Assembly: GCA_030167865.1 (NCBI GenBank)
Contig: JALAGF010002631.1
Location: 1 to 34,367 of the forward strand
DNA from: Craspedostauros australis
Lineage: Eukaryota
Length of the DNA stretch: 34,367 nt
Direction: 5' to 3'
The position numbers and the translations under genes are program-made. Positions 766 through 33,143 of the stretch are shown one piece after another. Within the stretch, counting starts at the first letter, position 1. Each line of letters starts with the position of its first letter. The notes under the pieces are model-generated. The model saw only the letters and a list, made by a program, of their open reading frames with translations, was not told the DNA's origin and did no database searches.

Positions 766-1678
766 GCGGTCTTCTCCCTTGTATCTAGAGAAGGACGAAT
801 CAATCACAGAGCCACTGATCGGCCTTCGTTGATCCGTTGCGTCGGCATCATGAAATCAACCACTTTGGACTCCTGCCACGTCATGTCTCAAAGGCAGCGG
901 GCGGCAACGAACCAGAGCACATGCATGCCAGCCAGATGTGATGAAACAAGGACACAAATACCACCAACACCACCACCATATCATTTTCTAAATAAATTTG
1001 TTGTACACACACCTGTCCATCTCGGCCCCATGTTGGGCCTGTAATGTTCGTGCCCATGTTGCGAAACAAAGTCGAACAAAAGCCAAGAGACAAAACGAGA
1101 CGACGCTTCCCACCGATGTTGGATATGACGTCACGAAATACGATTGCTTCACGATTCAATAGTCGAAGTGATCCAGCAAGTCGAATGCAACAGAATGCAA
1201 ACCACAACCACCAAACTGGACGCGACACAGATTTCCGAAACTGGAAAAAGCCACGCAGAACCGACGCGAATCGCATCATGAACGAAACCTTCGAAATACA
1301 CAAAACACACACACCTGACACAAGTCGTACAGAAGACACCAATCACCAAGGCGTCGTCCACGGAGGGGTTTCATCATCGACAACGCCTCCCATCGGGTCC
1401 ACTGCCAGCGTTCGTTGCGAGACAACGATACCAGCACTTCAAGGCATTTCCTCTCCAAGAGCATTCTAACCGAGGTCGACTCCAATCTTACGAGCAAGTA
1501 CCGGCGGTGTCTCTGGAAGAGGTTGAAGGAACAGCAGGTGCAATTCAATTGCAACAGACAGCTTAGTCACGACAAGGAGAACACCTACTCTACTTTACGC
1601 TACTCTGCAAGCCACAACAGCGACAACCACGACTACAGCCACAGCTACAGCCACCTCTTCTATATAGAGCTGTGCATC

Positions 1679-3925
1679 ATGGGTGTCCAGAGCACAGAGG
1701 AGGCCGCCGAGCTGGTTGCCACCATCCGATCGCAGCATGTGGTCATGAAGACATGGTTCAACAGCGACCAATCGCCGCAGGTGGCTTCATTGCGCAGCAC
1801 GCACGGCTCCTACCCGAAGCTCTGGAAGGAGGTGCTCACCTGGAACGGATGGAAGGAGGCTCGGAGGGCCTTCCTCAGGGCGCAGCAACTCAAAGAGTCC
1901 AACGGTTCGTCGCCGTCCTCTCCTGCGCCATCTCCCGTGCCAAGGAAACGCAAGTCGCGGTGGGGGACCTCATCCTCGCCACCGTCTGCGACGCCAGACA
2001 GCGCCAATGGCGACGGCGGTTCCAAACGCCGATCTCGATGGGGCAGGGACGCACCCGCAGGTGGCAGCAGCACCACGCCCATTCCACGTGCATCCAGTCT
2101 GCCAGGTGCCAAGGCCATCAACCTGCCAGGCATCCCCACCAACCTCCCACCGCAGCAACAGGAGGAGATGCGTGTCAAACAAAAACGCTTGAGGGAGGTC
2201 AACGAGCAGCTCGAGAATGTCGACCGGGAGGCTGCCCGCGTGGATTCGTTGCCGCGCGGTCATCGGGAACGATCCCCATCACCGCCGCCAGGTACGTGCG
2301 AGCAAACAAACAAAGGAATGAATGAATGTGTCCATGTCCGATGTTCTGCTGTGTTGTTGCATGGGTATTCTGCTGTTAACACGTGCTCTGGTTTACCTTG
2401 CCGACTTGCATCTTGCACACTGCCATTCGTATCATCTCGTTCTCATCCTTCCATTTGTGTGTCACACCATCTCCTTTCCAACGTTTGCACCAACCCAACA
2501 CGCAATCTCAATTGCACAACAAACACACTCTCATTTATTCCACGCTGACACAAACATCAACATCAACACCAACTTATCCAAACAGTGTACGGTGCCGACG
2601 GTAAGAGGAAGAACACTCGCGCCGTTCGCTGGAGGCAACGACTGACGAATGAACGTCAAGATATTCTCGAGAATCTCATGAACATGAACCCCGCCACACG
2701 ACAGAGCGGTCTGTTCCGCAGAAAGCACGTCAGAAAGGTGCGCATCCCGTTAGATGAGCATCCGCAGTACAACTTCATTGGCCTCATCATCGGGCCACGT
2801 GGTAAGACGCAGAAGGAGCTGGAGGCAAAGACCGGATGCAAAATCGCAATCCGCGGAAAGGGGTCCGTGAAGGATGGCGCGCGTGGCCGTCGCGATGGCA
2901 AGGTCATGGATAGCGACAACGAACCGTTGCATGTGGTCATCACGGGCGAGGACGCACGTTCGGTCGGTGCCGCAACCCAGATGATCGAAGAGATGCTTGT
3001 GGTCATCGACGATGAGAGGAACGTGCACAAGCAGCAGCAGCTGCGTGAACTCGCGTTGTTGAACGGCACCCTCATGGAGGATCAGTTCTGTCAGATCTGT
3101 GGCGAGAAGGGACACCGAGCCTTCGAATGTCCGAAGCGCTTCGCCAAGAACAAACCGGCATTCGCGGTCAAGTGTGCCATCTGCGGTGACACGAGCCACC
3201 CGACGAGGGACTGCACGCAAAAGCCAGCAGCGAGCAACACCAGCCAGAAGGAGATGGATTCAGATTACATGTCGTTCATGGCGGAGCTCGATGGTAAGAA
3301 GGTGGAGAAATCGAGCGACCAACCTGCCGACATCAAGCCACCACCAGGAGCCGCTGAAATTTCTCCGCCGGTGGCAGCTGGAGCCTCGCCTGCAGCAGCA
3401 GTAGTTCCGCAACCACCAGCCTCCATGCCGGTCCCTCCTCCGTTAATGAATTTGCCACCCCCACCGATGACATCACTCCCACCTCCGCCACTAGTAGCTG
3501 GTGGAGCCCCACCGCCTCCGCCCCCACCCATGCCACCGAGCAGCAATGCATCTTTGCCACCTCCTCCACCGGCAATCGCGGCGGTGGCAGCATCGCCCGG
3601 TGGAACTGGCGCACCTCCTCCGCCACCGCCACCCCCGCCGCCTCCTGCTGGGCACTTTGGTCATGGTGCGGTGCCACCACCACCTAACAATCAGGGATAC
3701 TATCCGAACAACCAACCGCAACAGCACCAGGGGTACTACAACCAGCAACAACAGCAGCAACCGCCACCCCCTCCTCCGGGACAAGGGTACGGCGAAGCAA
3801 CACACGACGAAGGTGGCAGCGGTGCGGCTTGGAATTACGAGAGCTACTACGGCACTGGAGACAGCAACGGCGGAGGTGGTGGCAGCGGAAGCGGTTTCAA
3901 CTGGTGGGATCAGAAAGCGGAGTAG
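1679..3925 (+). CDS. SF1: Splicing factor 1 / branchpoint-bridging protein; exons 1679-2291, 2586-3925
   Basis: Intron 2292-2585 (GTACGT...AACAG) joins in frame to give RSPSPPPVYGADGKRKNTR. Also present: RKRKSRW ULM, KH-QUA2 domain (NFIGLIIGPRGKTQK; KQQQLRELALLNGTL), two CCHC knuckles (CQICGEKGHRAFEC, CAICGDTSHPTRDC) and a Pro-rich tail. Confidence 0.95.
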
Positions 3926-7629: not shown

Positions 7630-9295
7630 CTTGCAAGGATTATTAGTATAGAATATAGAATGTCACGGGGTTGCTGTTTGCGGGTGTGTGGAAATGAAAT
7701 GATCGAATCAAGTCTGTTTCCAATGTTGCGTTGTTCTGAGCTGAATCTGGTTGTTCCGAAAAGTGTTGAGAGGCGGAAATGAAACCACAAGAGGATTTGA
7801 GAGCGAGAAACGGCGAATGGGAAAAGGGAGACAGACGAAGTTTGTACATTTGCGTTTGAATGTGTGAGTATGAGTGCGTCCTGCGCAAGAGTGGGAGCGG
7901 CAACACGTTCGAATGCAGCTGAAGAGTTCCTTCCACAAGATTTGCGGTAGCTGATGTTTCGGGGCTGCAGAAGTGCTTCTGGGAAAGGGGACGTTTTGGG
8001 CTGCTGATACTGTTGTTGCTGGTGACGTCTGTAAGATGCAACAAGCTCAGCATGGTGTGTTCTCGATTGGGCTGGCTGCTTGTCAATTGTCCTTGTTTCA
8101 TCCACGAGAACCGTTCAACAACTTTCCGCGGCGTTGAGTTGTTGGTGTTCGTCTGTGCACGTTGCGTGGCGTCGCGTCGCTGTCAGGGGTGCTCTCCGCG
8201 TATTCTGTTCCTGCGTGATTTCGCAAGGCGATCCCGCCGGACAGATCACCCAGTACTCCACGCCCTTCCAACTCAACTCAACCCAACCCAACCCAGCCAT
8301 CCTATCTTATCCTATCCTGACGTTTCAGTTGCTGCTGCTGTCGCTTGCGCCTTATCTTTCGATGCAAACCGAGGCACCTATTTGAGCCGTTGATGCTGCC
8401 GCTAATTCCCACACCACCATTGTTGCACAGCTTTCTTAGCCCTCGATCGCCATTTTCGCTGTCCACCAGCACTGCCCCCAACAACCCCACATGAAACCGT
8501 CCCGCTGACTTTGATTCGCAACACTTCGCCCATCCATCAACACCCAATACCCGATTCTCCGCCACACCAATTCATCAAAGGCAAGGGTCCTCCACCATGC
8601 TGATTCGGTCGACGGATCTTGCCGTTGTTGTCATCATCTTGGTCCGCATCGCGCCACCCTCACCTGCCTAGTTTTGCCTCCACCTGGTGGACGCTCGTCG
8701 TCAACCGCAACAGCCAAAAACCACAGGCACCACCAACAAGACCGCAACACAACGAAAGACACGACAGCACGATCAACAACGACAGCGACAGCGACTGAAA
8801 CAGCAAGAACAACAGCGACACCGCCACAACAACGCGAAATCGTCCACTTACTAATTTTCTTGGTCTGGCCATGACATCCACGATCCCAACCGTGTTTTTC
8901 AATTCGTGCACACAAGACAGGACGAGACCGATTGACCAGTCTGACTTGCAGGAATGTGCGGTTCACAAATCGTCTCCACACAGATTCCTGATTCTATCTT
9001 TGATTGGATGGATCGCGAACACCCACACTAAATGTACATTTGTGGTAGTATTGCAATGTTGTTCGCTGATGATACGTCCATTATCGTACCATTGTGCACA
9101 TCGACCAAACCAAACAAGAGGACAACAACTACCACCAATCCCTCAACGCGGTAGGTGCCTGGATGACCTTGTGGTGGGTATCTCCATTGTTAGCTCGGAT
9201 AGCGGTGCAGCCAGCATACTTGTACCATCTGTACTCGTACAGCGCAAAGCATTAGCTACAGCGATAGCAAGTGCTGCACTCTGCTATCAAGTACT

Positions 9296-11466
9296 ATGTC
9301 CAACATGGTGGTGCAAGACCAGAACGAAGCGACGGTGGCGGCAATGGAAGTGGAGACGGATGGAAGCAGCAAGAGCAAGCTCAACGACGAAGATGCCGCC
9401 GCCACCGCCGCTTCAGATGAAATGGAAGACATCGATGATGATCAGCTGGAGGAATACCGCGAGATGATCGACAACTTGGGTGAATTCCCGGACAAGGTCA
9501 AGATCAACACGCTTTCCATGATCGCAGAGGATTACGCCGACTCCAAGCACAGTGCCAAGCTCATTTACGGTCGCATCTGCGAGCAGTTACGTTCCGCGGA
9601 GGTCAAGGGCGCGCGCAAACTGCCGATCGTGTACGTCATCGATTCCATCCTGAAGAACGTCAAAGGTCAATTCACGTCGCTTGTGGAGGAGGATGCCGCA
9701 TCATGGATCCCGATCGTGCACCGGTCCCTCAACGATGCTGGCAAGGGCAAGCTCAAGAAAGTGTGGAAACTGTGGTGGGAGAAAAGGGTGGGATTTCAGG
9801 AATCCAAATGGAAGGCCATGGGCGCATGCTTCGATGCAGCAGCTGCCGCTTCTTCTGGCGGCAGTGGCGCTGCTGGGGATGGCAGCGGAGATGGAATGGA
9901 GGCAATGATATCCAACGATGACAGCGATCCGTATCCATCGATTGCCGGTATTCCACGCAAGGTGAGTGTCTGCAAAACGTCGCAATGGCTCTTCACCGAA
10001 TTCTTAGAACTGTTCTGCGACTACGGTTTGAAACATGGCAGCAGGAGATGCCATGTCGTGGCATGTCTTGTGTCATATTGCCATCTTCTATCGCACCCAG
10101 CACTACTCTATCCATCAAACGAATACGAATACTCACACCAACGCTTACAATCGCTGTTCAAACTACACTGGCGCGCACGCATGGGATACGTATCATGTCA
10201 AAACAACGACGATGACAATGATGGCAATGACGTCCCAATGTTGCTCCAACGTTGTTCCAACACTACTCCAACAAATAACAGAGCGATGGCAGTCTGGTGC
10301 TGAGCACAGCACTGCGAAATGCGATGCAAAGCGTGTTGGATGAAATGCAGAATGATATGGAGAATGAATTGGAGAAGGTTTCGTTGGAACGCGTCGCAAC
10401 TATCGACCCCAATCTGCTGGCGAAGATCAAAGAAATCGCGGAGGCCAATGTGACAGCTGGGGGCTTGGGATCGGCAGCCATGGTGGACTTGACAACGACA
10501 AACGCGACGAATGCACATGATGATATGGCGTTCCTGATCGAAAAACGATCACCGGCCACGATAGCCGAGTCGGAGGCATGGCTCAAGCTGGATCTGAAGA
10601 TCGAGAAGGAGGTGGATGAGTTGATGGCTTCTCTCAACAAATCCATCGCCGATGGATCGTCGACTGAGTCGCGATACACCCAAACAGAGGCGCTGGACAT
10701 GTCCAACTGTCTTGCTGTCGGCGCCGTGACCGCACACCTTCTCGAAGGCGCGCTGAAGCAGCTCAAGATCGAGGAAAAGGCCACCGAGAATGACAAGCAG
10801 AAATCTAGCACGGTTGCTTCCGTTGGCTTTCAGCAACTCCCGAAGGCGTACGCCATCGACAGGAAGCTGTTCACGCAGGATGGTCTCAAGCAGAAGAACG
10901 CCGCCGTCATCGGCATGCTTTACGAGGTCGGCCTGCCCTTTGTCAGCTCATCGGACGGTCGACGATTTGCATCGCAAAGGGCGCTGTCCGACCACATGGA
11001 CGCGTTGTTCAAAAAGACGCAGCTGGAACGCGCCATGACGGCAACGGAAGAACGCGGATGGTACAGCACGGATGATCAGTGGTGCTCCAATGCATCCGCT
11101 ACTGGCAATGATCCTGCCACCACCAACGCTCCGAATACAGCTGCCTCCGCACAACAAGGCGACAGCGGCGCCACGAACCAGAATCCGGACCTGGACGCTG
11201 ACCCGACCACAAATCCCGATGCCTGCACGGTCCCGGCCGACGAATCCAGAGACCGGTGCGCCATCTGCGGCGTCAACTTCCAAATGGTCTTCGACAATGA
11301 CGACGGCATATACAAGTACAAGAATTGTCGCGAGATGGACGTGATGAACGACGACGTCGCAGAGAGGGAATCGGAGGAAATGCTCGTTCACGTGACGTGC
11401 TGGAAGGCTCTTGGTGCGCCGGATGTCTTGACGAGGGATCAGATAATACACGATAACGCCGTCTAG
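9296..11466 (+). CDS. PCF11: PCF11-like cleavage/polyadenylation and termination factor; exons 9296-9961, 10282-11466
   Basis: N-terminal CID domain (KINTLSMIAED; KLPIVYVIDSILKNV). Phase-0 intron 9962-10281 (GTGAGT...AACAG). Clp1-binding-like RGWY...W segment and C-terminal C2HC finger VPADESRDRCAIC...NC...HVTC. Confidence 0.88.
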
Positions 11467-11536: not shown

Positions 11537-11931
11537 GATGAAGCTGGGCTTGACAGAAGGTGTGAAAGTATCCACTGTTGGTCGTATCTCTGATGTCTCC
11601 CAGGACAAGTCAAGCCTTCGCATTGCCGCACACATCATCGACTAAATCGATTCTGTGATAATCTAGTCGAGAAAACAAAACGCATTACCGTAACCCCCAG
11701 AATCCATGCAAAGATCTTGATGGCCTTGAGGAGGCGACACGACCACCACTGACCATGACATGATCACCAACATCACCACAACTGTCGTCATCAACTCAGA
11801 GAATGGAACACGACGCCGCAACTATCATCATCAGTCAATAACACTTGTATGCTGCAGTATTGTATTATATCATACCATACGGATAAGCGTCTTCATCGGT
11901 TCACACAGCTCTCGATTCTTCAACCATCACC

Positions 11932-13029
11932 ATGCTGTCGCGCGTAAGCAGCAGCAGTCTGCGAAGGATCGGGCGGCGCATTCCCAACCGCACATTCAGC
12001 TTCAGCTTTGCTGGGCCACGAACGCTGGAAGACATTCTGAAGAAGGAGATGGTTGAGGACAAGTCCGCAGCTGAGGTTGCAGACATCTGGGCAAACTATC
12101 ATAGCTCCAAGGTACGTGTGCTTGTTGTTCTCGCTTGCAGTGCCTGTTGTTGTTGTTGTTGCTTGCGTTGTGCCAACTCAAACGAAGATGCACCAAAGTA
12201 CTATTGCGCAAGACATGCATCCACTCATCTCTCCGTATTTTCAATGCTTTCGTCGTTCCAATCCTTACTATGCTGTATGATATCCACAGGAAAATGTGCA
12301 TGGGCTAGTGCTGAAGGCGGGGAAGGTGAAGTCGCTGCTGTCACGAGCAGCGCAAAGGTGAGCAAAGCCATCGCAGGCCGAAGGGACCAGAGCGGCTGCA
12401 AAGAAATGTACTCGAGAATAGGCTCGATTCCAAGCATTGTTCGAACCGAGATCGCCTTGGTCAAGCCCTCGAGTTGAGGTGATGTTGCAAGGAGTCAAGC
12501 AGGCACGTCCAATGCCATCGATCTCACACACGGTCCACCCCTTTCCGCATACACATGCGCACGCATTTCCACGCTATGCCACGTCACACCATGCCATGCC
12601 ATGCGCTTCCACAGCCCATTCTTTGTGCAACCCGTCTTCCGTGAGGACGGCTACTTCATGATGATATCCCAATTCCAGGAACCGGCCCATTTTCTCATGG
12701 CCTACCTGGAGGACTACAAGATGGATCCCGTCGCTGCCCAACCCTTGCTCACCTTCAGCGTCTTTGATGATTTTGCAGAAGAGAAAGAAATTGTCCTCGT
12801 GCGTGCGGATGTGCTGAATCGTGGGTTGGATGATACGGAAGGATTGAAGGTGGTGCGGAACATGTTGGATGTCTATGCCGACGATGCCGAGTACGAATCG
12901 GTGCATGCCTTCAACAAAGCGCCGGACCAGTTCGATTTCGATGACTTCGTGTCGCGGCAGAATGAGAAATGGCGAGCTGAGGCGGGGATGGCAAAGGACG
13001 ATGACGACGACGACGACGCTCAGAAGTGA
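11932..13029 (+). CDS. ATP11: Mitochondrial F1-ATPase assembly factor ATP11/ATPAF1; exons 11932-12111, 12290-12357, 12615-13029
   Basis: Arg/Ser-rich presequence followed by LEDILK...EVADIWANYH. Introns 12112-12289 and 12358-12614 are GT-AG and join in frame to ENVHGLVL...SRAAQSPFFVQPVFREDGY. Also YLEDYK and AFNKAPDQFDF. Confidence 0.9.
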
Positions 13030-13282: not shown

Positions 13283-15251
13283 CTATTCCCCATCATCCAT
13301 CGCGTCGTCGTCATCCGTTTCATCCGCGGCTTGTTCATCCTCCTCTTCGCTCTGTTCTTCCTCCGACTCCTCGTACTTAATTTTCTTGGTGGCCGATCGC
13401 CTCGGTGTTGCCCTGCGTGGCGTGGAGGATGACTTCTTCTTGGTCTTCTTGGCTGCCGCCGCACCGTGGTCGCTTGCATCCTCATCAGTGCTGGCATCGT
13501 TGTCGCTGTGCAGTGGAACGGAAGAGTCGCTGTGAACATCGTCTCCAGCACCTTCTTCTGCTTCCTCCTCGAATTCCAGTTTGGACGGAGTCGGCCGTTT
13601 GCGGTTTGCCGCAGCCTTCGTTGGTGTTTTGCGCGAGGGGGTGCTGCGTTTGTTCTTGCTGTTAGCTCGTTTCGTACCGACACCATCAATCGAACGGTTG
13701 GATCCACCAAAATGATGCAGTATTACGTCGTCGTTGCCGGTAGTCGTCGTGTCGCCGCTATTGTTGTCATCGTGTGTGCTGCCTTGATTGACTTCGTTTG
13801 ATGCTGGCTTCAAGGATGATGTGGCAGCTGAATTCCACTTGTCTCTCTCCTCCATCGGTTCCCACTTTGGCTCGCCAAGGATGATAGCTGATGAGAACAG
13901 GCTCTGCATGTGCGAGTGCAAATGCGACACGGATGTTGGAGATAGCATTCGATGGCGGCGGTCATAACAGCAAAAGCAACAGCAGCAACACAATCAATTA
14001 TGGCAATAACATTGAATCCAGTCAGAGTATTCCAGTATCGACCAGATTGCAATTCAAAACAAATGTGATCCAAGAAAAGTGACAAATGGGGTCGTTCAAT
14101 ACAACTCAAACGCACAAGAAGACAGCTCATTTGCTGTGCCCTTGTCCTTTCATTCAGCATGCTCGCGCGCAAGCAGCAACACGTACCTTGCACGTCACCG
14201 TTCCCCTGCGCTTGGCACTGCACGACAACACCATGAATTTTGTGGACGTCTCCACTTTCTTGCCAGGAAAGACGAGAACCTGATTTGCGAATGGCACACG
14301 CAGGGATGGCGTTTCGGTAGCTACTCCCATGAGCATTCCAAGGGATATCATGGCATCTGCAGATTTGGATGAGGCGGCTGCTGTTGCTTTCTTCGGTGAT
14401 TGTGCCGATTTTGGCACATCTGGTGGTAACGCAACATCTTCCTTGTCGTCGGGTTTGCCGTCCTCTTTTGGCACGTCATTATGTTCGGCGTCGGCCGCAG
14501 CGGCGGCGCTGTCGCCCGCTTTCGCGGTCGTTGCTGTTGTTTTGGCATTTGCCTGCGGGAGTCTCCCCTTCAGCGAGAGCTGTCCCGGAAAGATAATGAG
14601 GAACCTGCCCTTCTCCTTGGCGACGTTGGGCAAGTTGGTTGCTTGTTTGGTGAGTTGGATGTCCGTCCCGCTGCACTGGTGGATCAGCGGGCCGGGAAGG
14701 AGCCGTGGCGGCGCATCGTTGGCTTCGCCATCCGCATTGATTTCAGCCTCGTTGTCGATCATTGCGTCGTTGTCTGTCGCAACTGCAGTCTCTGCGTTTG
14801 CTTCAATTCCGTTGTTGCCAGTGTGGTCGCTGTTGGTATTGGTGTTGACGTTATCGTTGTCGCTGATGGTTGGTTGACAGACATTTCCCATCACAACTAT
14901 GTCTTCGCAAACGTTGGTGCTCTGGACGCTCACAGTATGCTCGTTCATGCCACCAGCGTCGTTTGGGGCATCGCTCGCGGTGTGTATCGCTCCGTCGTCG
15001 TGCCCATCGCCATGGTCAACACCGTCATGGCCACCTTGGCCCACCTTCGACTCTTCCGATGCGACCGCTTGGGTTGGTTCTGTTGGTGGTGGTGGCAACT
15101 CTCGAGGCAGATGCAGAACGGAGAGTTTCGTTTGGACTGGCCAATCTTTCGGCAAAGTGGGCAGCTCCTTCTTCTTTTGCTTCTTCTGTGGCTTCGCCTT
15201 GGCGGTTGCCTGCTTCTTCCTAGACGCCGCCGTCCCCTTCTTCGACCTCAT
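13283..15251 (-). CDS. RHL1-like (topoisomerase VI accessory subunit-like) nuclear protein; exons 15251-14187, 13903-13283
   Basis: Phase-0 intron 14186-13904 (GTACGT...TGCAG) joins VTCK|SLFSSAIILGEPKW. Core blocks KGRFLIIFPGQL and LGMLMGVATETPSLRVPF...VLVFPGKKV..STKFMVL resemble plant RHL1 as recalled. Lys-rich N-terminus and basic/acidic C-terminus. The gene structure is secure; the family call is moderate. Confidence 0.65.
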
Positions 15252-15782: not shown

Positions 15783-17936
15783 ATGCATGCCAATCGGTGC
15801 AGCATCTTTGCGCTTGCGGGTTTGCTGTTGGCACCACGAACAACGGGATTTGGGTGGAGACGGTTCATGTCAAGAGCGGCGCAACGACATCTCGCACACA
15901 GTCACCCCCACACAAACCGTCACGGCAGGGGCATTGAAAGTCACGGAACGTTCCACACGCCTCTCGCATTCCTATTTCCAGCGTCAGCATCAGCGTCGTT
16001 TTATTCATCTTCGTCAACCACCAACATGAAAAAGGAGAAGTCGGAAGAATGCTGCACGCAGCAGGCGCCGACCTCGCTGCAACTGTTTGAGGATTGGATG
16101 CACCATGATGATGTCGCCTTCCATCATTTTTCCAACGACGAAGCGGAACAAATACGAAACGCATTGCTGACATGGTACAGGGTCAACCGCCGGAAGTTGC
16201 CATGGCGAGGTGATGCACCGCCATTCGACGGCAGCACGGCTAGTAAGAAACGCAAGAGATCTTCGTCCTCATCGTCATCCACAACGAAAGGCAAGCAGAC
16301 CAACCTAACGAGCTTCTTCGCCACCAAAAGTACGCCGAGCGATGCCACCAACAGACGGTTGACACGAAGTGCAAAGAAGATGGCGGCGCGAGAGCAGTCG
16401 GCAGATCAAGATGAAGCCATCAGTGGTGGCACGGAACAATGCAACAATGCGGACACACCAGTCGAAAAGGCCATCGCCGTCAGCGCCTACGGAGTCTGGG
16501 TTAGCGAGATTATGCTGCAGCAAACTAGAGTCGAGGCGGTCATTCCATTCTGGTGCAAATGTAAGTTGGTGCGGTAGTTGCAGTTCTGCGGTTTCACAAA
16601 CGTGGAGACGCCTGGGCACACTGGAGCCAAACTGTACCACATGCCGCTCACCACCTCACCCACAAACTCGCCATTCTGACTTTGTCTTCGTCTACACTGG
16701 GTTGCAGGGATGAAATCGTTCCCGAGCGTGCACGATCTCGCAGCGGCGTCCGAAGACGATGTCAATGCGCACTGGGCGGGCCTCGGCTTTTACCGTCGCG
16801 CCAGGCTCCTGCACCGTGGTGCCAAGGACATCGTGCAACGGCTGGATGGGAATGTCCCCAATACGGTCGAGGAACTGCTCAAGATCGATGGAATCGGTCC
16901 CTACACGGCATCTGCGATCGCCTCCATCGCCTTTGGTCGCAGCGTGCCCGTAGTCGATGGCAACGTCTGCCGCGTTCTATCACGTTTGACTGGCATTGCA
17001 AATCACATCAAATCACCGGCGTTGAAAGACAAGCACGGCTGGGATCTGGCGCGGCAGATTGTGGAAGCGGGGGATGGTCAGCATGCCGGCCAGGTCAATC
17101 AGGCAATGATGGAGCTGGGAGCGACCTACTGCGCACCATCCGGCACCGGCATGGATGAGAAAGATCCGCTCAAGTCGTTCTACATGTCGACTAGGTTGGG
17201 ACGCATGTACGGCGATATCATCGCGACGACTGGGCAGCGGCCGGACCGTAGTATGGAACAAACTAGACGATCGCAATCACAAACAAGTGGCCGCTGCGTC
17301 TTGTGCGATCCCGAAGGTGTGGACACCGCATTGGATCGATTCCAAGAGATCACCAGCAAGTTCGACGATTCCAAAGATGACGATACTGGCGACGCGTTCG
17401 CAAGAGCGGGCCATGAAGTGTTTCCGTTGGCTCCACCCAAAGCCAAACGCAGAGAGGAGGATCTGGCCGTTGCCTGCATCAGCGTGAAATGTGATGGCGC
17501 AGTTTGGTGGCTTCTCATCAAACGTCCAAGCGAAGGTTTGCTGGCGGGACAGTGGGAGTTCCCCGCCGTGCTGTTGCAAATTCGTGAAAAGGAGTTCAAG
17601 GTACCGAAGCCGCGCAGTCGCAAGAGCAGACTGACCGCCTTCCTTGACGAGATATCCAACCACGATAACGACGAGGAGAATGCCTTCATCAAACGGCAAC
17701 AATCGAAGGCACCGATCGAGCACATCTTCAGCCACGTCAAGCACGTTATGTGGGTGGAGTATTTGCACTGCGAAGGGAAGGGCACAACCAACCCGATCCA
17801 AGCCAAGAGCTGGACGACCCCGGATGAGAGGGAGGTGCGCTGGATGCGCGAAGCGGACATGATGAAGGTCGGCATCACCGCGCGAGTCAAGAAGATCATG
17901 AAGGTCGCCAAGCAACAAATAACAACAACGTCTTAG
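15783..17936 (+). CDS. MUTYH: A/G-specific adenine DNA glycosylase (MutY/MUTYH); exons 15783-16560, 16708-17936; alternative in-frame ATGs at 15867 and 16026
   Basis: RRKLPWR, YGVWVSEIMLQQTRV, WAGLGFYRRAR, HhH motif IDGIGPYTA, VVDGNVCRV, NQAMMELGA, KRPSEGLLAGQWEFP and HIFSH loop. Intron 16561-16707 (GTAAGT...TGCAG) gives KWMKSFP. Confidence 0.95.
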
Positions 17937-18282: not shown

Positions 18283-20235
18283 TTACCAAAGCATCGCCAG
18301 GCCACCGACCAGAGTAGCTGCCACGGTGGAGATCCCGACGATCGAGCCAGCCGCGGCGGACGTAGGGGCCGTGGTTGGAGCTAAGGTTGGGGCCGCGCTG
18401 GCAAGTGGAGTTGGGACCGCGCTGGGAACCAGGGACAGGGTCATTGATGGAGACTCCGTGACCAAGGCATCGAGCGTCAGGTTTCCTGGAAAGATGACAC
18501 CGTCAATAAAGTGCATGACGCCATTGTCGGCCAAAACATCCGGCATGGTGACCATGATGCCGTTGACAGTGATCATCTCTCCCATCCTGGTGATGTTGAG
18601 CATCTCTCCCGAGATGCTCTGGACCATCTGGCTTCCTTCCATGATCTGTTCCTTGGTCAGAACGCCCTCGACGACGTGGGCCTGCACGACCAGGTCTTGG
18701 ACATCCGAGCGTCCAAAGAAAGCATCGTAGCCTTGTTTGTTGTCCATTTCGAGCTGGCTGAACACGGAGTTTGTCACAGCAAAGACTGTGTGCCCCACCG
18801 AGGTGGAGAGTGTGTTCGCGACTGCGCCGAGGCTGTTCACGAGGTTTGCGAATGTTCCCAGGTCCGCGTGAGCGCCAGCCACTTGCGGCAAAGTCATGCC
18901 CACCCACGAAGGCGTAAGGACGCCATCGATGATGTGCACGAAGCCAGGGTTGAAGGCCTTTTTGTCAGCGGTGGTGACCGTGGCGTTGCCGTTGATGGTG
19001 ATGCTGCTGGTGTTGCTGACCGAAACCGCGAACGTTTCCATGTTGGCAGCCTGGACGTCTCCGCTCATGACCATGCTGGATTCGATGGCTGCTCCGTCGA
19101 CGACGTGGTACAGCAGTAGGTCCCTGAGATGGGTGATGTATGCGAGAGTCTGGATCTTGGCGAGGAAGTCGCCTGGGACGGAGTCGAAGGCCATGTTGTC
19201 GGGGGCGAAGAGGGTGACGTTCGGAGACGTATCCAGCACGTCGACGAGACCGACCATTTGCGTGAGGTTGGCCAGGATGGAGAGGTTCGGCTCTTCCATG
19301 ACGATGGTGGCGACGGTTGGGGGGATGAGGAGCTGTTCGATGAAGCCCACCACCCCGTTTCCAACCGCGGACAATTCATGAATCGCGACACCATTGACGG
19401 TGAAATTCAGGAAACTGTTTCTGAAGAGAGCGAGTTCGAAGCCTTGGATGGTCGGGAATGGTTGTGGCGGCTTGCCGAACAGGGCATTGTCCAGTGATAT
19501 AGGGCTATAATTTGCGTCCAAGATGTGATACTCGATGAGACTCTTGAGAAAGTCGGGAGATTGGATTTTGTCTGCCAATCCTGTGATGTTTGCGAGAGCG
19601 TCTTGAATTGCAGCGTCGGTGGGGGCCATGAACGTGAGCATGCGGTCATTCGACAGCTTGGACAGGAGGCCTGTCTGGTTGGCAAGAGCGATGATGGTGT
19701 CCGCGCTTCCTGATTCGGCCATCTTCTCGACGATCGTCAAATCGAAGTTGGAAGGCCACAAGGGCTTGTCAAGGATGTGAAAGGCGGATCTTTCGACAGG
19801 TACGTCACCTTCGATGATCGAGGCGTTGAACTCAGGAAATGAGACTACGAAGTCCGAGGAAACGGAGACCAGAATTGGGCTTTGCACGATATTCTTGTAT
19901 ACCTCACCGTCGATGAAGTCGAACTCTGAAACGCTGTCGGAAAGGATGTGCGGGAGCATGAGCTCGGTTGTGTGGCCTCCCCATTCAAAGGGTGCAGTGT
20001 CGGTCTGCATATCAATAATCAGTTGCTGGTTGTGGGAGGCAAAGCCCTCGTCTCTGCTCGCGAGGTACGTGATGGTCCTGCAAGTTCTGCTGAACCTGCC
20101 ACCTGACAGCTGCAGGTCCAGAGCTCCCATGATGGAGAACGCGGGATCATTGTCAAAGGTGTCACGGATCCTTTGCCCGTTGGCGACGCCTACCACGCCT
20201 GCCAGGAGCCATGCGCGAGATGTTCCGAACTTCAT
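18283..20235 (-). CDS. Secreted, probably GPI-anchored multi-FAS1 (fasciclin) cell-surface protein
   Basis: Signal peptide MKFGTSRAWLLAGVVGVANG. FAS1 motifs TFMAPTDAA, TLFAPDNMAF, TVFAVTNSVF, LLYHVV, GFVHIIDGVL and NGVMHFIDGVI, plus a degenerate first repeat (AFHILDKPL). P/T/S/A-rich stalk and hydrophobic C-terminus. Confidence 0.92.
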   Translation of the reverse strand: MKFGTSRAWLLAGVVGVANGQRIRDTFDNDPAFSIMGALDLQLSGGRFSRTCRTITYLASRDEGFASHNQQLIIDMQTDTAPFEWGGHTTELMLPHILSDSVSEFDFIDGEVYKNIVQSPILVSVSSDFVVSFPEFNASIIEGDVPVERSAFHILDKPLWPSNFDLTIVEKMAESGSADTIIALANQTGLLSKLSNDRMLTFMAPTDAAIQDALANITGLADKIQSPDFLKSLIEYHILDANYSPISLDNALFGKPPQPFPTIQGFELALFRNSFLNFTVNGVAIHELSAVGNGVVGFIEQLLIPPTVATIVMEEPNLSILANLTQMVGLVDVLDTSPNVTLFAPDNMAFDSVPGDFLAKIQTLAYITHLRDLLLYHVVDGAAIESSMVMSGDVQAANMETFAVSVSNTSSITINGNATVTTADKKAFNPGFVHIIDGVLTPSWVGMTLPQVAGAHADLGTFANLVNSLGAVANTLSTSVGHTVFAVTNSVFSQLEMDNKQGYDAFFGRSDVQDLVVQAHVVEGVLTKEQIMEGSQMVQSISGEMLNITRMGEMITVNGIMVTMPDVLADNGVMHFIDGVIFPGNLTLDALVTESPSMTLSLVPSAVPTPLASAAPTLAPTTAPTSAAAGSIVGISTVAATLVGGLAMLW

Positions 20236-22082
20236 CTTGCTGTTGTTGTTGCTGTTGGTATTGCTATGGCTGTTGTGGTTATTCTTGATGTTCTAGTTGT
20301 TCTCGTTGCTGTCGTTAACGATTGGCAAACGATTGGCAATCGGCGAAGGATCTGTCCTGTTTTGTCGGACGAAAATGGCGAGGATGAGAGTGGGAACGCA
20401 GCGATGAGAGGGATGGAATTGTGAGGTGGTTACACAACAGACAGAACATGGCAGGACGAACGGGACGCACAGAAGAAGCGCAACAACAAAGACTCCGTGA
20501 CCACCGCCCACAGGTGACACTCATGAGCGATTCAGACAATCAAACATGTGGAAGACTTGTGCTCAATCTGCCTTTGTGTTTGAACGCACCTGTCTGCTGG
20601 TTGGCTGGAAATCTTTTTTGTGTTGGTGACTGCGCACTTTTCCGTATTGTGGGGTATGGAACAGAGCAGAGCGGAGATTCCAGGCAGCTCTCGTTTTGCA
20701 GTCTTTGTCGGTGATTGTGGCGCTTTGTTTGTTTGTTCATGCCCTGCATCGTATCCGCAGTCAGCCTCGCGCTCTTGTTGGCTTTGTCCAATTGTTCGCC
20801 TCCCGAACACTCATCCGATGCGGTCGTTTCGCGGTCGTCTTGGTGGTTGTTTGCTTCCTTGGCAGTTGTGTGGCTGTTGTTTGGTTGGCGTTTCCTCGTT
20901 TGTCCGTTCGGCACTTCCCGCGTCCCGTTCACCAAGAAGGATTGGGAGAAGGAAGCAGCGGCAGTATTTTCATTGGACCGTCAGTGCGCAGTACTGTGCT
21001 CTAACGTAGTACTTGTGTTCTTCTTGTGCCGCCCAAACAAAGAAAAGCCCCTTTGGAGCGAATGTCTCTGCGTTGTCGCATGACACAACGAGCGGACATC
21101 ATTTATTGAGGACTTCCACCAAACGCTTGTCACATTCGAATCTTCCTCTTTTTCTTGGTTCAACAGCAGCTGCGAACCCGAGGACGAACACGAGACCACA
21201 GCGCGTGGAGGCATTACGAGCTTTGCACAAGCAACAGTGTCCCTGGAACTCATGACTCAATGTGTGTGACTGAAATACCGGCAACCTGTCGCGCAACACC
21301 GGCGCCATGGAGTACACAGACAAGCGGACAAGGCCAGAAAGATACTCACACCTTGTATGCAGGCGCCTGCCTACACACCTGAGCATAGCACATAGTATGT
21401 AGTTTTACATTCTGGTACTATGAGCTCCATCTGTAAATCTTGTCACAGGTAGGTACATTCCTCCAGCCATTTGCGTGCGCATGTACGCACGGTGGATGTA
21501 CGTTCGATTGCTCCTTTGTTGCCTGCCTGCTTGTACTACTACAATACCTTCCCGGCCGCGTTTGTCCAACATCGCTCCGCGTTGTGAGATAATCTTCCTA
21601 CAGGCGGGGCAGTGGGGAAATCGATGACTCTGGGGTACGACCTACTCTCCTCTGGAGTACATATAGTAGAATGGTAGAGTACTCTCCTCTCCTCTATCTA
21701 CCTCTGCGGTGGCTTCCCCCGCCTGAAACATATGGCTGTGTTGTATATTATCATAAAATGACATTTTATGTAATAGTCGTATGTAACACAGGTGTTGCCA
21801 ACAACCATAATCGTCTCGAGGATCCGATCTTCCGTAGAGGTTATTCGTATAATCGAAGTCATATCTCGAGAGAGAGGCAGCAGCAGCTCTATTGCCACAC
21901 TGGAGCGACCTTCCAAGTCATCGGCGTGGTTTTGGTGTTGCTTTCGGTTTTCACCTGCTAATCCTACTGTCTTCAACTACCTATGCTTCTTCCACTAATG
22001 CCACTAATAATGCCACTACTGATGCGTCTACTGTTGCCACTACTGTTGCTGCTACTGCCTCCGATGATCATGATGGCGTCAG

Positions 22083-23512
22083 TCAGTGGAATCCGTTCAC
22101 AGCGTCAACGGATGCGACGCCGATTTGGCGACGCGCCTCGTCCATGAGCTTCAAGTTCAGCATGGTCTCATCGAGCGTGAATTGGGGCGCCTCGAGCTTG
22201 CCGGCTGCGATGCATCGCGCCACACCGGCGGCCTCGTACGCGAATCCCGCGGAGTTGGGATAGAAGTACCCACCGGCCTTCTTGATCTCCTCCGTGTCTT
22301 CCGGGAGAGCGTATTCGTACACGTTACTTTCTGCCTTGGCTCCACGCCCGTCGGCCTTCACGTCGACAGTCAACCTCGTCGGACAATGGCCGGGTGACTG
22401 CAATGTCATGCGTCCCTTCGTTCCGATCATGGTGGTTTCCTCCACGCTCTCGCAAAGAACTCCGAAGCTCAGGACGGCCACTCCAGCGCCAGGCAGCTTG
22501 GGTGTCGATTCATCCACGTTGCTCTCGTCCATGGCGGGCTGTACGTTGCTGGTGGGTGGGAAGGACATTGTCATGCCGACCTGCAGATCCACTCCTGTCG
22601 TGGCATCCAGCTGTCCCACGGCCTTGATCTGATCCGGCTCGGAATTTGGGAAGAACATGGTCGCGGCCGCGAGGGGGTACGGGCCGACCACCAGGCTCGA
22701 TCCTCCACCGAGCTTGCGGTTGTAGAGGAAGGAGTCGGGGTAGGTTTCCGAGTCGGCCGCATTGAAATTGAAATCCGAAATGACCTGCACCACCTCACCC
22801 AATTTCTTGGCCGAATCGCCGGATCCGGTTGCGATGTCGCGGGCCTTTTGCACTGCAGGGAAGAACCGCGTCCACATGCCCTATTGTTTCGAGTGTTGAT
22901 GATTTGGTGGTAATTTGCAATCGATATTGAGTGAGAGACGGTGTTGAATGGAAGTGAGCACGGCATCATGTACTCTGCGCTTCTGCAAGCATCGTTCCGC
23001 ACCTTGCGCATGACCGCTATCACTGAGATGAAGCGTTGCACGCAGCAACCAGCGCAGTGGGTGCAATCACAGGTATTTGCACACTGAAGCCTTACCTCCA
23101 TCACGAAGACGCCCTTCTTCTTGGCCAAATCGATGAGATACTGTCCATCCTCCACGCTGCACGCGAATGGCTTCTCCACAAGAACGTGCTTGCCGGCGTT
23201 GATGCATTTCTCTGCCGTCTCGCGACGGAATCGATGGATGTTCCCCACGTACACGATATCCACCTCACCATCGTCCAGCAGACCATCGTATCCACCGTAC
23301 GAACGGGCCACACCGTGCTTCTCGGCGAATGCGACGGCGCTGTCCGCACTGCGAGCCGCGCAGGCAGTCACGGTCTGCGTCGGCAGGTGCTTCAGTGCCT
23401 GCGTGAAGTCGTGCGACACGCGGCCGCATCCCAGGATTCCCCATCGCAGTGGTGGGCATTGCAGAGGATCGGCGACCGTGCGGTCGTCCATCGGCGGTGG
23501 TAGGATTGCCAT
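22083..23512 (-). CDS. Gfo/Idh/MocA-family oxidoreductase (dihydrodiol/D-xylose dehydrogenase-like); exons 23512-23096, 22880-22083
   Basis: LRWGILGCGRVS Rossmann motif and KHVLVEKP. Phase-0 intron 23095-22881 (GTAAGG...AATAG) gives VFVMEGMWTRFFP. C-terminal GFAYEA...MDEARRQIG. Confidence 0.92.
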
Positions 23513-24329
23513 CGTGGAAGAGCTTGATGTCTGTATGCGTTGTTGGGTGGCTGGTTGAATTCGCTTTTTTGAATATCTTATGCGCTGTTGTTGGTTGTTG
23601 GAGGTGCGAACTCTGAGCCTGGTCTCGGCCTGTCTCTTCCGACAATCTTCGATCTTCCTTTGCGTTCTGCTGAACCGAATTATGTGCAGTACTACTATGT
23701 GCTGAACGTGCATGCAGAGGTGATGAGCGTTTGGGGAGATCTCTTCTTGTCGCTGGAAACGAACCAACCGATGACGACGATCCCAATTCGGCGACGTGTG
23801 TGTTGCGGATTGTTTCGGTTTGCAAATCTTCGTTACGTCATTGGCTCAGCGATGAAATTCTTCCACGGACACAGAATTCCCATGAGCTCCTCATTCCTTG
23901 ACTCGGACGGAACGATCTTTGGAATCGTGGATGCGATCCATGTTCGCAATTCTTGTTTTGGCGTCTTCTTTTCCACTCTCCTTCTTTCGTGTTCGATCGA
24001 CACAAGAAGTGGACGAGGACGCACCCACCCACGACAGAGCGGTCAACACACACCAAGAAGAAGAAGAGGTCAGCCACCGGTCCCCTTCATTGGTCAACCC
24101 CAGCAAGATGACCTCACACATTGTATGAAGATCCTGCCACAATAGGAGGCTTGAATTGGATTGAGCGAGCCTCAGGTCGAGCTTGATCGAATTGCAGAGC
24201 AAAGAGTTAGAATCCCTGCAGTACGACCAGAGAGCAAGAGAGCAGGGCGGCAAAGCAAGAAAGCAAAGAGACGACAAGGGAACGAGCAAGTCGTCACGCC
24301 ATCTGTCGAACGAGAATCGTGTGGGAATC

Positions 24330-27524: not shown

Positions 27525-28532
27525 TTAATCGAAGATGTCAGTTCCCTTCGGCGTGAAAGCGTCTGGCCCACCCAGGACTCCGTCCAATGGATTTGGGTTG
27601 GTCTTGTAGCTGACGTACTTGTCGAGCGCCGAGATTGCCTTCATTTCATCCTCGGACAGGGTGAAGTCGTACACATCAATGTTCTCCTTGATACGATGCG
27701 CCTTGACGCTCTTTGGCAGCACGACAATGCTGCGTTGCAGCAACCACCGCAGCAGGACCTGCGCTGGGCTCTTGCCATGCCCTTCTGCGATCTTGATGAC
27801 AACCTCATCATCCAGCGGACATGCGGTCTTCCAGGTTTCCTTGTTGGCGGCGCCGCCACCCAACGGGGTGTGGGCCGTGACGCAGATCTTGCGGGAGTGA
27901 CAGTAATTGACCAACGATTCGCGGGTGTAGTAAGCGTGCGTCTCGATCTGGTTGCACGACACGGGGACCTTGGCCTGCGTGACGAGATCGTGCAGCAGCA
28001 CGAGGGGGTAGTTGGACACGCCGATGGAACGGCACTTGCCGGCCTCCACCAACGCTTCCATCGCTCTCCAGGTGTCGATCAGCGGGGTGTCGCCGAATTC
28101 GGAAGCGCCCCAGCTGGGCGTGGCCAGTCCAGTGTGCTTCCACGCGACGGGGAAGTGGATGAGGTAGAGATCGAAGTACTCCAGGCCGAGATTGTTGAGA
28201 CTGTGATCGCAGGCCTGCGGCACGATTTCGACGTCGTGGTCAGAGTTCCAGAGCTTGCCGGTGATGAAGAGATCCTCGCGCTTGACGAGGCCTTCGCTGA
28301 ATGCCTTCTGGAATGCGGCGCCGACCTCCTTCTCGTTGCCGTACACGTGCGCCAGATCGAAGTGCTTGTACCCTGCCTTGATTGCCTCGATGACGGCATC
28401 GCCGACCTCGTTGTTCTCGCTGCGGAATGTTCCGTACGCGACGACGGGCATGTCATGGCCGCTTGCCAGCTTGAAGACCGCAGCGGAAGAAGATGGGTCG
28501 AAGCTCTTTGGAGGGATGGTGTAGTTGCTCAT
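27525..28532 (-). CDS. Aldo-keto reductase, AKR2A-like (aldose/mannose-6-phosphate reductase-like)
   Basis: Catalytic tetrad D-Y-K-H lies in HFDLAHVYGNE, FITGKLWNSDH and LYLIHFP. Also SIGVSNY, NQIETH and the LPKS NADPH motif. Confidence 0.95.
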   Translation of the reverse strand: MSNYTIPPKSFDPSSSAAVFKLASGHDMPVVAYGTFRSENNEVGDAVIEAIKAGYKHFDLAHVYGNEKEVGAAFQKAFSEGLVKREDLFITGKLWNSDHDVEIVPQACDHSLNNLGLEYFDLYLIHFPVAWKHTGLATPSWGASEFGDTPLIDTWRAMEALVEAGKCRSIGVSNYPLVLLHDLVTQAKVPVSCNQIETHAYYTRESLVNYCHSRKICVTAHTPLGGGAANKETWKTACPLDDEVVIKIAEGHGKSPAQVLLRWLLQRSIVVLPKSVKAHRIKENIDVYDFTLSEDEMKAISALDKYVSYKTNPNPLDGVLGGPDAFTPKGTDIFD

Positions 28533-29412
28533 GGTGAAATGCTATATTTGTTTTCGGAAGGTGCTTGCTTGTTGCTTGCTTGTGTGCTTGTGGTTCGATT
28601 GTTGTTGCGTTTGTTGTTTTATGAGGACGTCGAAGACGGAAGTGGAAGTCGAAGTGGAGATGAGATGAGCGCGAAGACGAAGATGGCGGATGTTGGCCCA
28701 ATGACCGCGATGCGCGCGTGTGTTGGATCCATTCGGCGCATGCGTACGTACTCGTCTTCCCTGCATGCAACAAGGAATGCAATGTAGGAATCATCATCAT
28801 CGTCATCATCATCTCTCTGTGCAGCCATGTTACCACAACACCGGTTAGATCACATCTTGTGTGGCGAATGCAACCAGCTGCTCTTTCCCGTTTTCGCCTT
28901 CGCCTGCAATTGCCTCTTGTGCATGTGTGTTGTTTCCATTTTGTGTGTGATATCTTTCGAGACGTGGATGTAGAAGAGAAGACAACGAACAACAACTACT
29001 CGCTCCACGTGGAAGCGACCAATACGACCCATCCGCATCAGCCATCACCAACCAACAAACGTGACAACACGAGAGATTGCGAGAGAGACGATCTGCGTGC
29101 GTTTCTGCTGATGTCGATTTCTTTGCGTGTCAAGAGGCAGAAAGATGCAGCGGCTGGTTGATGGGTCGGCCCAAGTGACGACCAAACCAGCCAAAGGAAC
29201 CAAAGCATCATTGCTATCGTCATCTTCATCGCCATCTTCACCATCACCGTTGACCAGAGCAATCTCAAGATCGAATCTGACCAGAGCAGCAAGAGCATCG
29301 TTTTGTAGAAAGAGCGATAATCAACTACGGCAACGCTCTTCCGTTTCCTTTCCAATCAGCAGCACCAGCACCAGCACTAAAGACAACGAATAAGCCATCG
29401 ACGATCTTCAAA

Positions 29413-30969: not shown

Positions 30970-32045
30970 CTGTATCCGAACGTACGAGGATGAGCGGCAA
31001 TTTCAGACTCCGCGCATAATTGTGCGTCCAAGACGATGCATCAGAGTTGTTTCACACATAGTGCACGGTTGTTCTGTGCCGTGGCTTCCACATGACACAA
31101 ATCCGAACCAGTTGGATCAGCCTGACATCACAACTGCAAGCCAAGACAGCAGAAACTCCGGGCCAATGGTGGAACAGTTGGCGCATTTCCAAAGACGTTT
31201 CGACGGGGAAACATGAGATTCCATCACCCCAAACAAGGTTGCTGCCATTCCACGTGGTTTGCAAAGCGGGAAATGGCATTCCGACATTAGTGCGACATGG
31301 AAGAGGACACGCAAAGTGGTCGAAATGAGAACTGGAACACCTGCTGCTTCTGCGAACTGCGAGAGACAGGCAAACAGATGACGCGAAGGCAGGTTTCAGC
31401 AGACGGAGGCAGAAGGAAAGACACGCGGAAGAATCGAGAATCAACGCCAATGCATCGCGACAAGGGCGGTGCAAGATGGAGGAAAACAACAACCCAAACA
31501 GAAGCACGCACCCGCGCGTGATGCGCGAAATGCCATCGTCATCGACCTCGTCATCATCACCGTTGCGAACCGTGGAAACAGGTGGCGAGGGGCAGAGGTC
31601 GCTTTGTTTGTGAAGGGTTTGCGCTGGTCTGTGCTGATTTGGTTGGTCATGAAGGACGGTGTGATCATCACGTGATGCAGTGTCTGATGTCACAACTACG
31701 TTGGTGTGTTCCACCAAACCAACATCAGACGTCAAAGTATGGAGAAACGGAGACGCAACGGTACGAGAGTCTCACAATAGATTCACACCACATCAATTCA
31801 ACCAACCGAACAACCACCGAAAGCACAAAGGTTCGTTCGCTTCCAACTTGCCCCCACAACGACAACGACAGAACAGTCATCATCACCACCGCATCAGCAC
31901 CGCATCATCATTTGTTCTTCCTCCTTTCGTCCAGCCTGCCTGAGCTCACCCAACCTCACAAACTCAGACCGAGAACATCATATAAACACAACAATTGCAA
32001 CAAAATCAACAAAAGCAACCAACCAGCAGTAAGAACAACAACAGC

Positions 32046-33143
32046 ATGTCCATGATGAACTTGTCAGACACAGCATCCGCGGACGCCGTCCTGTCTCTGA
32101 AGAGGAAGCACGAGGGTCTGTCTCCATTCGCAAAGAAGACCGCCGCATCACCCACCACCATGACCAAGGAGGAGCCATCAGCCATCGGATCGGCCGCATT
32201 CAACCAGCGTCCCGCGAAGAAGGCCAACGTGACCAAGGGCAGGGAGATCCGCCTGGAGCAGAACAGGAAGGCTGCCAGAGAGTCCCGCAGGAGGAAGAAG
32301 GTCATGATCGAGGAGCTGCAGCGCAGCGTCATCTTCTTCTCCAGAGCCAACGGCGCCCTCAAGCAGCAGAACGACGACCTCAGCCGTCTCCTCATGCAGG
32401 CTCAGACGCAGGTTGCCATCATCGAGAACCAGAAGAAGGCCAACGCAGCGGCTGCTGCCGCCGCCGCCGCCCAGCAGCAGCAGGCCCAACAACAGCAACA
32501 AGCTCAGGCGCAGGCTCACGCCCAAGCACAGGCCCAGGCTCAGCAGCCACAGCAAGTCCAGCAGCAGGCAGCGCCTTCCGCTCCTTCCAGCAACAATGGC
32601 AACAGCCACGTGCCCAAGACCAGCCCAGAACAGGAAGCACAGGCCCATGCGCAGACCGTCGCCACGCAGGCCATCCTCCAGAGCCAGGGATTCCCATCAG
32701 CTGCTGCCAGGGCCGCAGCGCAGACCCTCAACGGCGTGCAGCACGCTGTCACCCAGGGCAGTGTCGCCTCTGCCGCCGCGTTGGCAGCCCAAGGTGGACA
32801 GACAATGCCCCCAATGCAGCCAGGTGCCACCATGCAAGCCATGGCCAACTTCCAACAGGCCGCTGCCGTGGCCATGCAAGCCGCAGTCCATGGCATGCAG
32901 GGTCTTTCCGGAACCCAAGCCGCTCCGGCAACAGCCGCCCCACCAGCCCCACAGCAACCTGCGCAGGCCTCACAGGCGACCTTCAACGATGCCATGACCG
33001 CCCTCGCCATGCAGGCTGCAGGGCAGCAGCTGTTCCAGGGCAACCCCTTCGTCGGACCCATGATGGCGTGGCAGCATCAGGCACAGGCCCAAGCCCAGGC
33101 GCATCCCACCGGGACCGCCAATGGTGCCACGCAGCAGCCCTGA
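32046..33143 (+). CDS. bZIP transcription factor with Gln/Ala-rich C-terminus
   Basis: Basic region RLEQNRKAARESRRRKK followed by heptads (IEELQRSVIFFSRANGALKQQNDDLSRLL). First ATG in frame is 32046. Confidence 0.93.
   Translation: MSMMNLSDTASADAVLSLKRKHEGLSPFAKKTAASPTTMTKEEPSAIGSAAFNQRPAKKANVTKGREIRLEQNRKAARESRRRKKVMIEELQRSVIFFSRANGALKQQNDDLSRLLMQAQTQVAIIENQKKANAAAAAAAAAQQQQAQQQQQAQAQAHAQAQAQAQQPQQVQQQAAPSAPSSNNGNSHVPKTSPEQEAQAHAQTVATQAILQSQGFPSAAARAAAQTLNGVQHAVTQGSVASAAALAAQGGQTMPPMQPGATMQAMANFQQAAAVAMQAAVHGMQGLSGTQAAPATAAPPAPQQPAQASQATFNDAMTALAMQAAGQQLFQGNPFVGPMMAWQHQAQAQAQAHPTGTANGATQQP

Follow-up and report, generated by a model that had tools for sequence, protein, structure and literature searches.

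The window (the whole 34,367-nucleotide stretch of Craspedostauros australis DNA analysed here) carries on its minus strand a two-exon gene that very probably encodes the RHL1 orthologue of diatoms; RHL1 is one of the non-catalytic subunits of the topoisomerase VI of eukaryotes. A likeness to RHL1 had been proposed in an earlier note on this DNA, and the identity is upheld by comparisons between family profiles. A motif from the plant sequence given in that note led to one plant exon, present in five metagenome contigs; the plant exon retrieved 248 proteins, and the best 120 of the 248 were used, about 70 with RHL1 in the name (counted by eye). Of these 120 plant proteins, a diatom profile built without the window protein found 90 at E ≤ 0.001, and 115 when the limit was relaxed to E ≤ 1, the best at 3.2e-8 (E values scaled to a library of 1.84e9 sequences); reversed controls scored at most 2.6 bits on it. 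A plant profile of 96 cores gave more than 10 bits to 54 of the 93 diatom-family sequences and to 0 of the 93 reversed ones. HHalign of the diatom profile (23 rows) against the plant profile (30 of the 120 rows) gave a probability of 98.1% and an E value of 1e-13 over 109 columns, running from the first block to the last strand. This outcome was unchanged when the window row was removed; 30 column-shuffled controls stayed at or below 0.91% and the reversed control at 0.16%. Taken alone, the window protein scores weakly on the plant profile (5.8 bits, P 4.7e-4), and exon 1 by itself reaches a probability of 8.3% by HHalign. The colinearity with plant RHL1 that had been read by eye is thus real by profile and HHalign comparison, while the by-eye alignment alone is not significant; the match is decisive only through the diatom family profile and not through the single protein. 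The Thalictrum record P0219 (953 aa, named Nijmegen breakage syndrome 1) also contains a match to the RHL1 exon; it is probably two adjoining genes fused by annotation.

The gene is present in one copy in the assembly and is made up as follows.

15251-14187, minus strand: exon 1, 355 codons (aa 1-355), frame open from the ATG to a GT donor; its part of the core finds 81 homologues at E ≤ 0.001
14186-13904, minus strand: intron, 283 nt, GT..AG, phase 0, with in-frame stops; it severs the last strand of the conserved core
13903-13283, minus strand: exon 2, 206 codons plus stop (aa 356-561); it completes the core and has two family motifs in frame, and a run X1 contig spans it

The spliced product of the two exons is a protein of 561 aa. 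Two-exon splicing had been proposed before with a length of 562 aa; the splicing stands and the length is 561 aa by codon count, and the three stretches of sequence quoted at that time are all found in the spliced translation. The acceptor at 13903 is the best of four tried on a diatom profile of 22 whole cores from which the window protein was left out, with 161 bits over profile positions 2-175; the three other acceptors and read-through gave 141-142 bits each, and exon 2 thus contributes 19 bits. The core is uninterrupted in 42 of the 92 homologues, 41 gene calls break at the same codon and nine do neither. The 41 broken calls continue with Val, i.e. the GT is read through, so the intron position is common to many relatives. 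In a transcriptome-derived Nitzschia protein the continuation matches the start of exon 2. Run X1 is the only run with the region; it is presumed to be RNA, and this is a guess, as no run holding the region is recorded as RNA. Its contig spans 13196-13987, which is exon 2 plus 84 nt of the intron; no splice joint is seen in it, and exon 1 has no cover in this one run. Because the contig enters the intron without a joint, the splice is unsupported by transcripts; its backing comes from homologues.

An exhaustive phmmer search with the exon-1 core returned 81 proteins at E ≤ 0.001, 58 of them at E ≤ 1e-10, and a profile search added 11, bringing the homologues to 92. A word-index search with residues 180-355 of exon 1 retained 0 of 1163 candidates, although the exhaustive search gave 81. 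All of the homologues with a species name are from diatoms (Nitzschia, Pseudo-nitzschia and Bacillariaceae sp.). A tree was built from 48 cores: the window protein, seven plant proteins and 40 of the 42 whole-core homologues. In it the window protein is sister (support 99/98) to a group with all five Bacillariaceae-named rows, which most likely makes the source a pennate diatom; its end branch of 0.8 is similar to those of its tree neighbours. UniRef names one of the 20 homologues looked up, Nitzschia inconspicua A0A9K3LZB9 (45% identity to the window protein over the matched core), as 'DNA-binding protein RHL1'; the other 19 have no functional name, and NCBI calls the N. inconspicua protein hypothetical. 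As the UniRef name is probably automatic, the family was tested directly against plant RHL1. Pfam gave no informative match for three window pieces or for 15 of 15 homologues, a null that is uninformative since plant RHL1 also has no match in the same copy of Pfam.

By its composition profile the protein has the look of a folded domain only at aa 183-226 and 303-369. Most of the rest is low-complexity and charged (70 K+R and 91 D+E in the 561 residues), so that charged low-complexity arms flank the core. The parts, from the N-terminus, are listed here.

15165..15251, minus strand: lysine-rich N-terminus, aa 1-29, with 13 K/R within the first 30 residues
15129..15155, minus strand: W-P-V short motif, aa 33-41, a diatom-family motif, here about 140 aa upstream of the core
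14574..14705, minus strand: core block A, aa 183-226, first part of the RHL1 beta core; aligns with the first conserved plant RHL1 block
14346..14573, minus strand: low-complexity insert, aa 227-302, separating the core blocks; modelled as coil with low confidence
14187..14345, minus strand: core block B, exon-1 part, aa 303-355; aligns with plant RHL1
13862..13903, minus strand: core block B, exon-2 part, aa 356-369, last strand(s) of the core; aligns with the end of the plant core
13679..13717, minus strand: H-[YF]-G-G motif, aa 418-430, C-terminal of the core
13373..13417, minus strand: basic motif with an aromatic last residue, aa 518-532, followed by the acidic end

The lysine-rich N-terminus is a probable nuclear-localisation or DNA-contact segment, judged from its composition. 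A [WF]P motif lies upstream of the core in 29 of the 42 full-core homologues. The spacer between blocks A and B is about 80 aa in the window protein and 22-107 aa (median 62) in the 37 of 42 diatom-family cores in which it could be measured, whereas 102 of 120 RHL1 proteins of plants have a spacer of 9-10 aa; the long insert is therefore characteristic of the diatom family rather than of this gene. The H-[YF]-G-G motif is present in 35 of the 42 full-core homologues, and a similar aromatic-G-G motif stands C-terminal of the core in 72 of 98 plant RHL1 proteins. With a pattern drafted post hoc from the sequences themselves, the basic motif ending in Tyr or Phe was found in 28 of 40 proteins of the diatom family and in 90 of 98 from plants; the counts for shuffled sequences were 4.1 and 3.3. 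The order of these two motifs outside the core is the same in plants and diatoms. An acidic-aromatic C-terminal tail occurs in 20 (strict pattern) or 27 (loose pattern) of 40 diatom-family proteins, and an acidic-Trp end of similar form in 67 of 98 plant RHL1 proteins. In the window gene none of the three frames past the core encodes this tail, and the post-core part has 196 aa, compared with a family median of 423 (range 175-624). The C-termini of diatom-family members such as P0005, P0013, P0058 and P0095 show a conserved arginine cluster and then the acidic-aromatic last motif; this end looks like a short binding motif and is without a counterpart in the window protein.

A short-insert homologue core, 46% identical to the window core, was modelled with nine strands and one short helix (pLDDT 78). 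Foldseek with this model placed three Ctf18-Dcc1-Ctf8 entries at the top (E 0.002-0.005), followed by other barrel dimers; no fold match reached E ≤ 0.001 or a Z-score of 8. In a wider fold search the Ctf8 entry (Z 5.3) was tied with an ELL2-EAF1 chain (Z 5.4). With the Atlas model of the N. inconspicua homologue, a chlorophyte cluster came first and a Ctf8 cluster second, and an Atlas feature search gave one chlorophyte cluster at 0.81 and 0.84, a lead only, the aligned part of which carries PF30943. The exon-1 part of the window protein, modelled alone with the insert and without the last strand, had a pTM of 0.40 and no fold match, and a sequence search of solved structures gave two chance rows only (best E 0.12). 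The beta cores of RHL1 and BIN4 have been likened to Ctf8/Dcc1, and the two monomers overlap structurally (PMC9665070). The modelled Ctf8-like fold agrees with that published likeness, if weakly. Given the ELL2-EAF1 tie and no strong fold match, the fold does not point to RHL1 in particular; nor can it separate RHL1 from BIN4.

The genome search bears on the partners as well. The earlier note had suggested a plant-like multi-subunit topoisomerase VI in this lineage, and the search for its catalytic subunits was positive for both. TOP6B is recognized by its transducer domain at E 1e-46, with the GHKL ATP-binding boxes in an upstream exon. In the TOP6A family, TP6A_N was found in three near-identical places at E 1.2e-20 and, as a weaker paralogue, in three places at 4.2e-9. 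From score and conservation, and in agreement with PMC4647503, the stronger gene would be SPO11-3 and the weaker the meiotic SPO11-2. The three SPO11-3-type loci are 97-100% identical to each other and are probably assembly duplicates or haplotypes. The two-exon gene below is a good candidate for BIN4.

G000:C317:43461-45297, minus strand: BIN4 candidate, two exons, 537 aa, 223-nt GT-AG intron, unannotated, no Pfam match

It is proposed on the strength of three short motifs, putatively those of BIN4, which occur in it in the expected order. Like RHL1 it has basic and acidic arms, and it has no score on the two RHL1 profiles (-23.2 and -0.4 bits). The pattern that led to it had two matches, of which this gene is one, and two in the control. 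When the exon-1 core and the candidate's two exon pieces were put through complex prediction, with every chain incomplete and the alignment unused, the score was 0.03, which gives no answer on pairing. C. australis most probably has all four subunits of a plant-type topoisomerase VI: TOP6B and a SPO11-3-type gene were found, and BIN4 is represented by a motif-based candidate.

What sets the window protein apart might be taken as decay of an RHL1 by descent, weakened or re-purposed, its connection with topoisomerase VI or with a downstream partner having slackened through the long insert and the lost tail. The tail missing in all three frames, a post-core part near the low end of the family range and the X1 contig that reads into the intron would suit such a history. 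We regard it as very unlikely, as the insert has a length typical of the diatom family, the tail is also missing in 13 of 40 relatives by the loose pattern, the end branch resembles those of the tree neighbours, the partner genes are all present (BIN4 as a candidate), and the core, the H-[YF]-G-G motif and the basic motif are intact.

Less probable still is an identity as BIN4, which is RHL1's structural twin, or as a different triple-barrel dimer half, for example Ctf8. The structural overlap of the BIN4 and RHL1 monomers (PMC9665070) makes the confusion conceivable, fold searches do return Ctf8 and other barrel dimers, and a family search found no Ctf8 gene elsewhere in the genome, with its controls equally silent. 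The whole core nevertheless matches named plant RHL1 in sequence at E 1e-13, neither the three window pieces nor any of 15 homologues matches the Pfam Ctf8 family (PF09696), and the separate BIN4 candidate is blind to both RHL1 profiles. To the idea that the splice is wrong, that the two open reading frames are not one gene and that the likeness to RHL1 is due to chance, we give next to no credence: the single run X1 lacks a joint and the direct score to plant RHL1 is weak, but both parts lie in one chain in 42 of 92 homologues, the transcriptome-derived Nitzschia protein among them, and exon 2 adds its 19 bits together with two more family motifs.

On the reading that we prefer, in which the window gene is RHL1, the ∼110 conserved residues in the two blocks are by sequence homologous to the plant core, and both blocks are predicted to fold as one half of a Ctf8/Dcc1-like intertwined beta barrel from which the ∼80-aa insert is looped out. 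By analogy with plants and Ectocarpus, this half-barrel would pair with the matching core of BIN4, and the heterodimer would dock on TOP6B of the TOP6A(SPO11-3)2-TOP6B2 enzyme. The disordered charged arms and the short conserved motifs may bind DNA or chromatin and could bring topoisomerase VI to catenated or supercoiled DNA in replication; cutting and strand passage would be left to SPO11-3 and TOP6B, both encoded in the genome. The brown-algal (Ectocarpus) pair has been put to a two-hybrid test; in the three-protein two-hybrid test with TOP6B, done for Arabidopsis, binding of RHL1-BIN4 to TOP6B gave a signal only when all three proteins were expressed, and both RHL1 and BIN4 bind DNA (PMC9665070). 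Arabidopsis RHL1 binds DNA in vitro and its loss gives the phenotype of topoisomerase VI mutants (as cited in PMC9665070). Since the core pairs with BIN4, the pair binds TOP6B and both bind DNA in Arabidopsis and Ectocarpus, RHL1 may by analogy be an adaptor that delivers topoisomerase VI to DNA needing decatenation.

A further step, which we think unlikely, would be that diatoms use the four-subunit topoisomerase VI for auxospore enlargement, paralleling the plant link to cell expansion, with the RHL1 motifs outside the barrel serving to dock the enzyme on chromatin or at the replication fork. The motifs meant are the aromatic-G-G motif, the basic-aromatic motif and the acidic-aromatic tail, which are kept from plants to diatoms outside the barrel. 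The SPO11-3 transcript of Seminavis robusta peaks at auxosporulation, and that of Pseudo-nitzschia multistriata is unchanged with sex (PMC4647503). If auxospores and docking motifs were so connected, the loss of the tail would make C. australis a natural test of one motif.

Compared with plant RHL1 (ROOT HAIRLESS 1 / HYP7), the window protein shares the core homology over 109 columns, the charged disordered arms, the aromatic-G-G and then the basic-aromatic motif after the core, and the co-occurrence with SPO11-3, TOP6B and BIN4 (here a candidate). It differs in being longer (561 aa, compared with about 350-470 aa), in having its core blocks 80 aa rather than 9-10 aa apart, in the ∼140 extra low-complexity residues ahead of the core and in lacking the acidic-Trp tail. 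It belongs to the same family as the stramenopile RHL1 proteins (Ectocarpus siliculosus, Phaeodactylum tricornutum and other diatoms, and N. inconspicua A0A9K3LZB9), shares its intron position with many relatives and differs from most diatom relatives in a shorter C-terminal arm without the acidic-aromatic last residues. What is particular to the protein is thus the ∼80-aa loop splitting the barrel, a family trait, and the missing tail. BIN4 / MIDGET, the published dimer partner of RHL1, has a structurally overlapping beta core (PMC9665070) and is a separate sequence family with its own candidate gene at G000:C317. Ctf8 (of the Ctf8/Dcc1 module of Ctf18-RFC), TFIIF, TFIIIC, EAF/ELL and RNase H2 B/C are the nearest solved folds to the modelled core; with 12-13% identity, E values of at least 0.002 and no Pfam Ctf8 match, Ctf8 and the other triple-barrel dimers share a fold at most.

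To our knowledge, the role of RHL1 in endoreduplication is known from plants only. RHL1 as such, which the earlier note gives as generally described from plants, is not essentially a plant protein, and earlier publications have it in stramenopiles, among them diatoms. Brinkmeier et al. (2022; PMC9665070) describe RHL1 and BIN4 from plants, some opisthokonts, choanoflagellates among them, and SAR, in strict correlation with topoisomerase VI, and their preprint (10.1101/2022.05.08.491100) gives alignments of the RHL1 and BIN4 cores with a species set that includes Phaeodactylum tricornutum. According to Allen and Maxwell (2024; PMC11302465), SPO11-3/TOP6B in SAR is always accompanied by RHL1 and BIN4; the taxa in their figure, as given in its legend, include four diatom orders, with Fragilariopsis, Mayamaea, Chaetoceros and Thalassiosira listed, and they call it unclear whether topoisomerase VI serves endoreduplication in protists (for background on the plant enzyme, see PMC7614492). 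With diatom RHL1 already published, the window gene is an ordinary further member of the family, and, in keeping with the predictions of the 2022 and 2024 surveys, C. australis is one more diatom in which the topoisomerase VI set is most probably complete. No description of the insert or of the tail motifs was found in the available parts of the RHL1/BIN4 literature, and the published alignments may show them. What is gained is a corrected annotation: Pfam has no name for the gene, and its intron and long insert conceal it from searches with a single sequence. The question it touches is the role of topoisomerase VI in single-celled algae, which it makes no more testable than do the orthologues in model diatoms.

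The RHL1 gene is flanked by ATP11, which converges on it, and by a MutY-like gene that diverges from it. ATP11 (an F1-ATPase assembly factor; window 11930-13029, plus strand, several exons) ends 254 bp from the RHL1 stop, and in run X1 its contig is covered about 13 times as deeply as that of RHL1. The MutY-like adenine glycosylase (HhH-GPD, NUDIX_4; window 16027-17936, plus strand) lies about 780 bp off and is a second DNA-maintenance gene on the intergenic region that it has in common with RHL1. The other neighbours were named by eye from their translations.

1-765: GAPDH
1319-3925: splicing factor 1-like
9203-11466: CID-domain protein (PCF11-like)
18283-20292: fasciclin-repeat protein
22083-23845: oxidoreductase
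27525-28541: aldo-keto reductase
31986-33143: bZIP protein

Elsewhere in the assembly, the TOP6B locus (G000:C3814, ∼56300-59300, minus strand) encodes a long run of acidic, low-complexity sequence in its GHKL exon and, past the transducer, an extended C-terminus. The SPO11-family genes each lie on three contigs with equal scores (G000:C1122, C4214 and C4215 for one; C3181, C3482 and C5037 for the other). Two other BIN4 motif patterns were tried and rejected, one with no matches and one with four matches against ten in the control, none of them BIN4-like. Around the chance matches on G000:C1249 and G000:C2089, the translations resemble GC-rich bacterial genes read off-frame, and from this impression the assembly may hold bacterial contigs.
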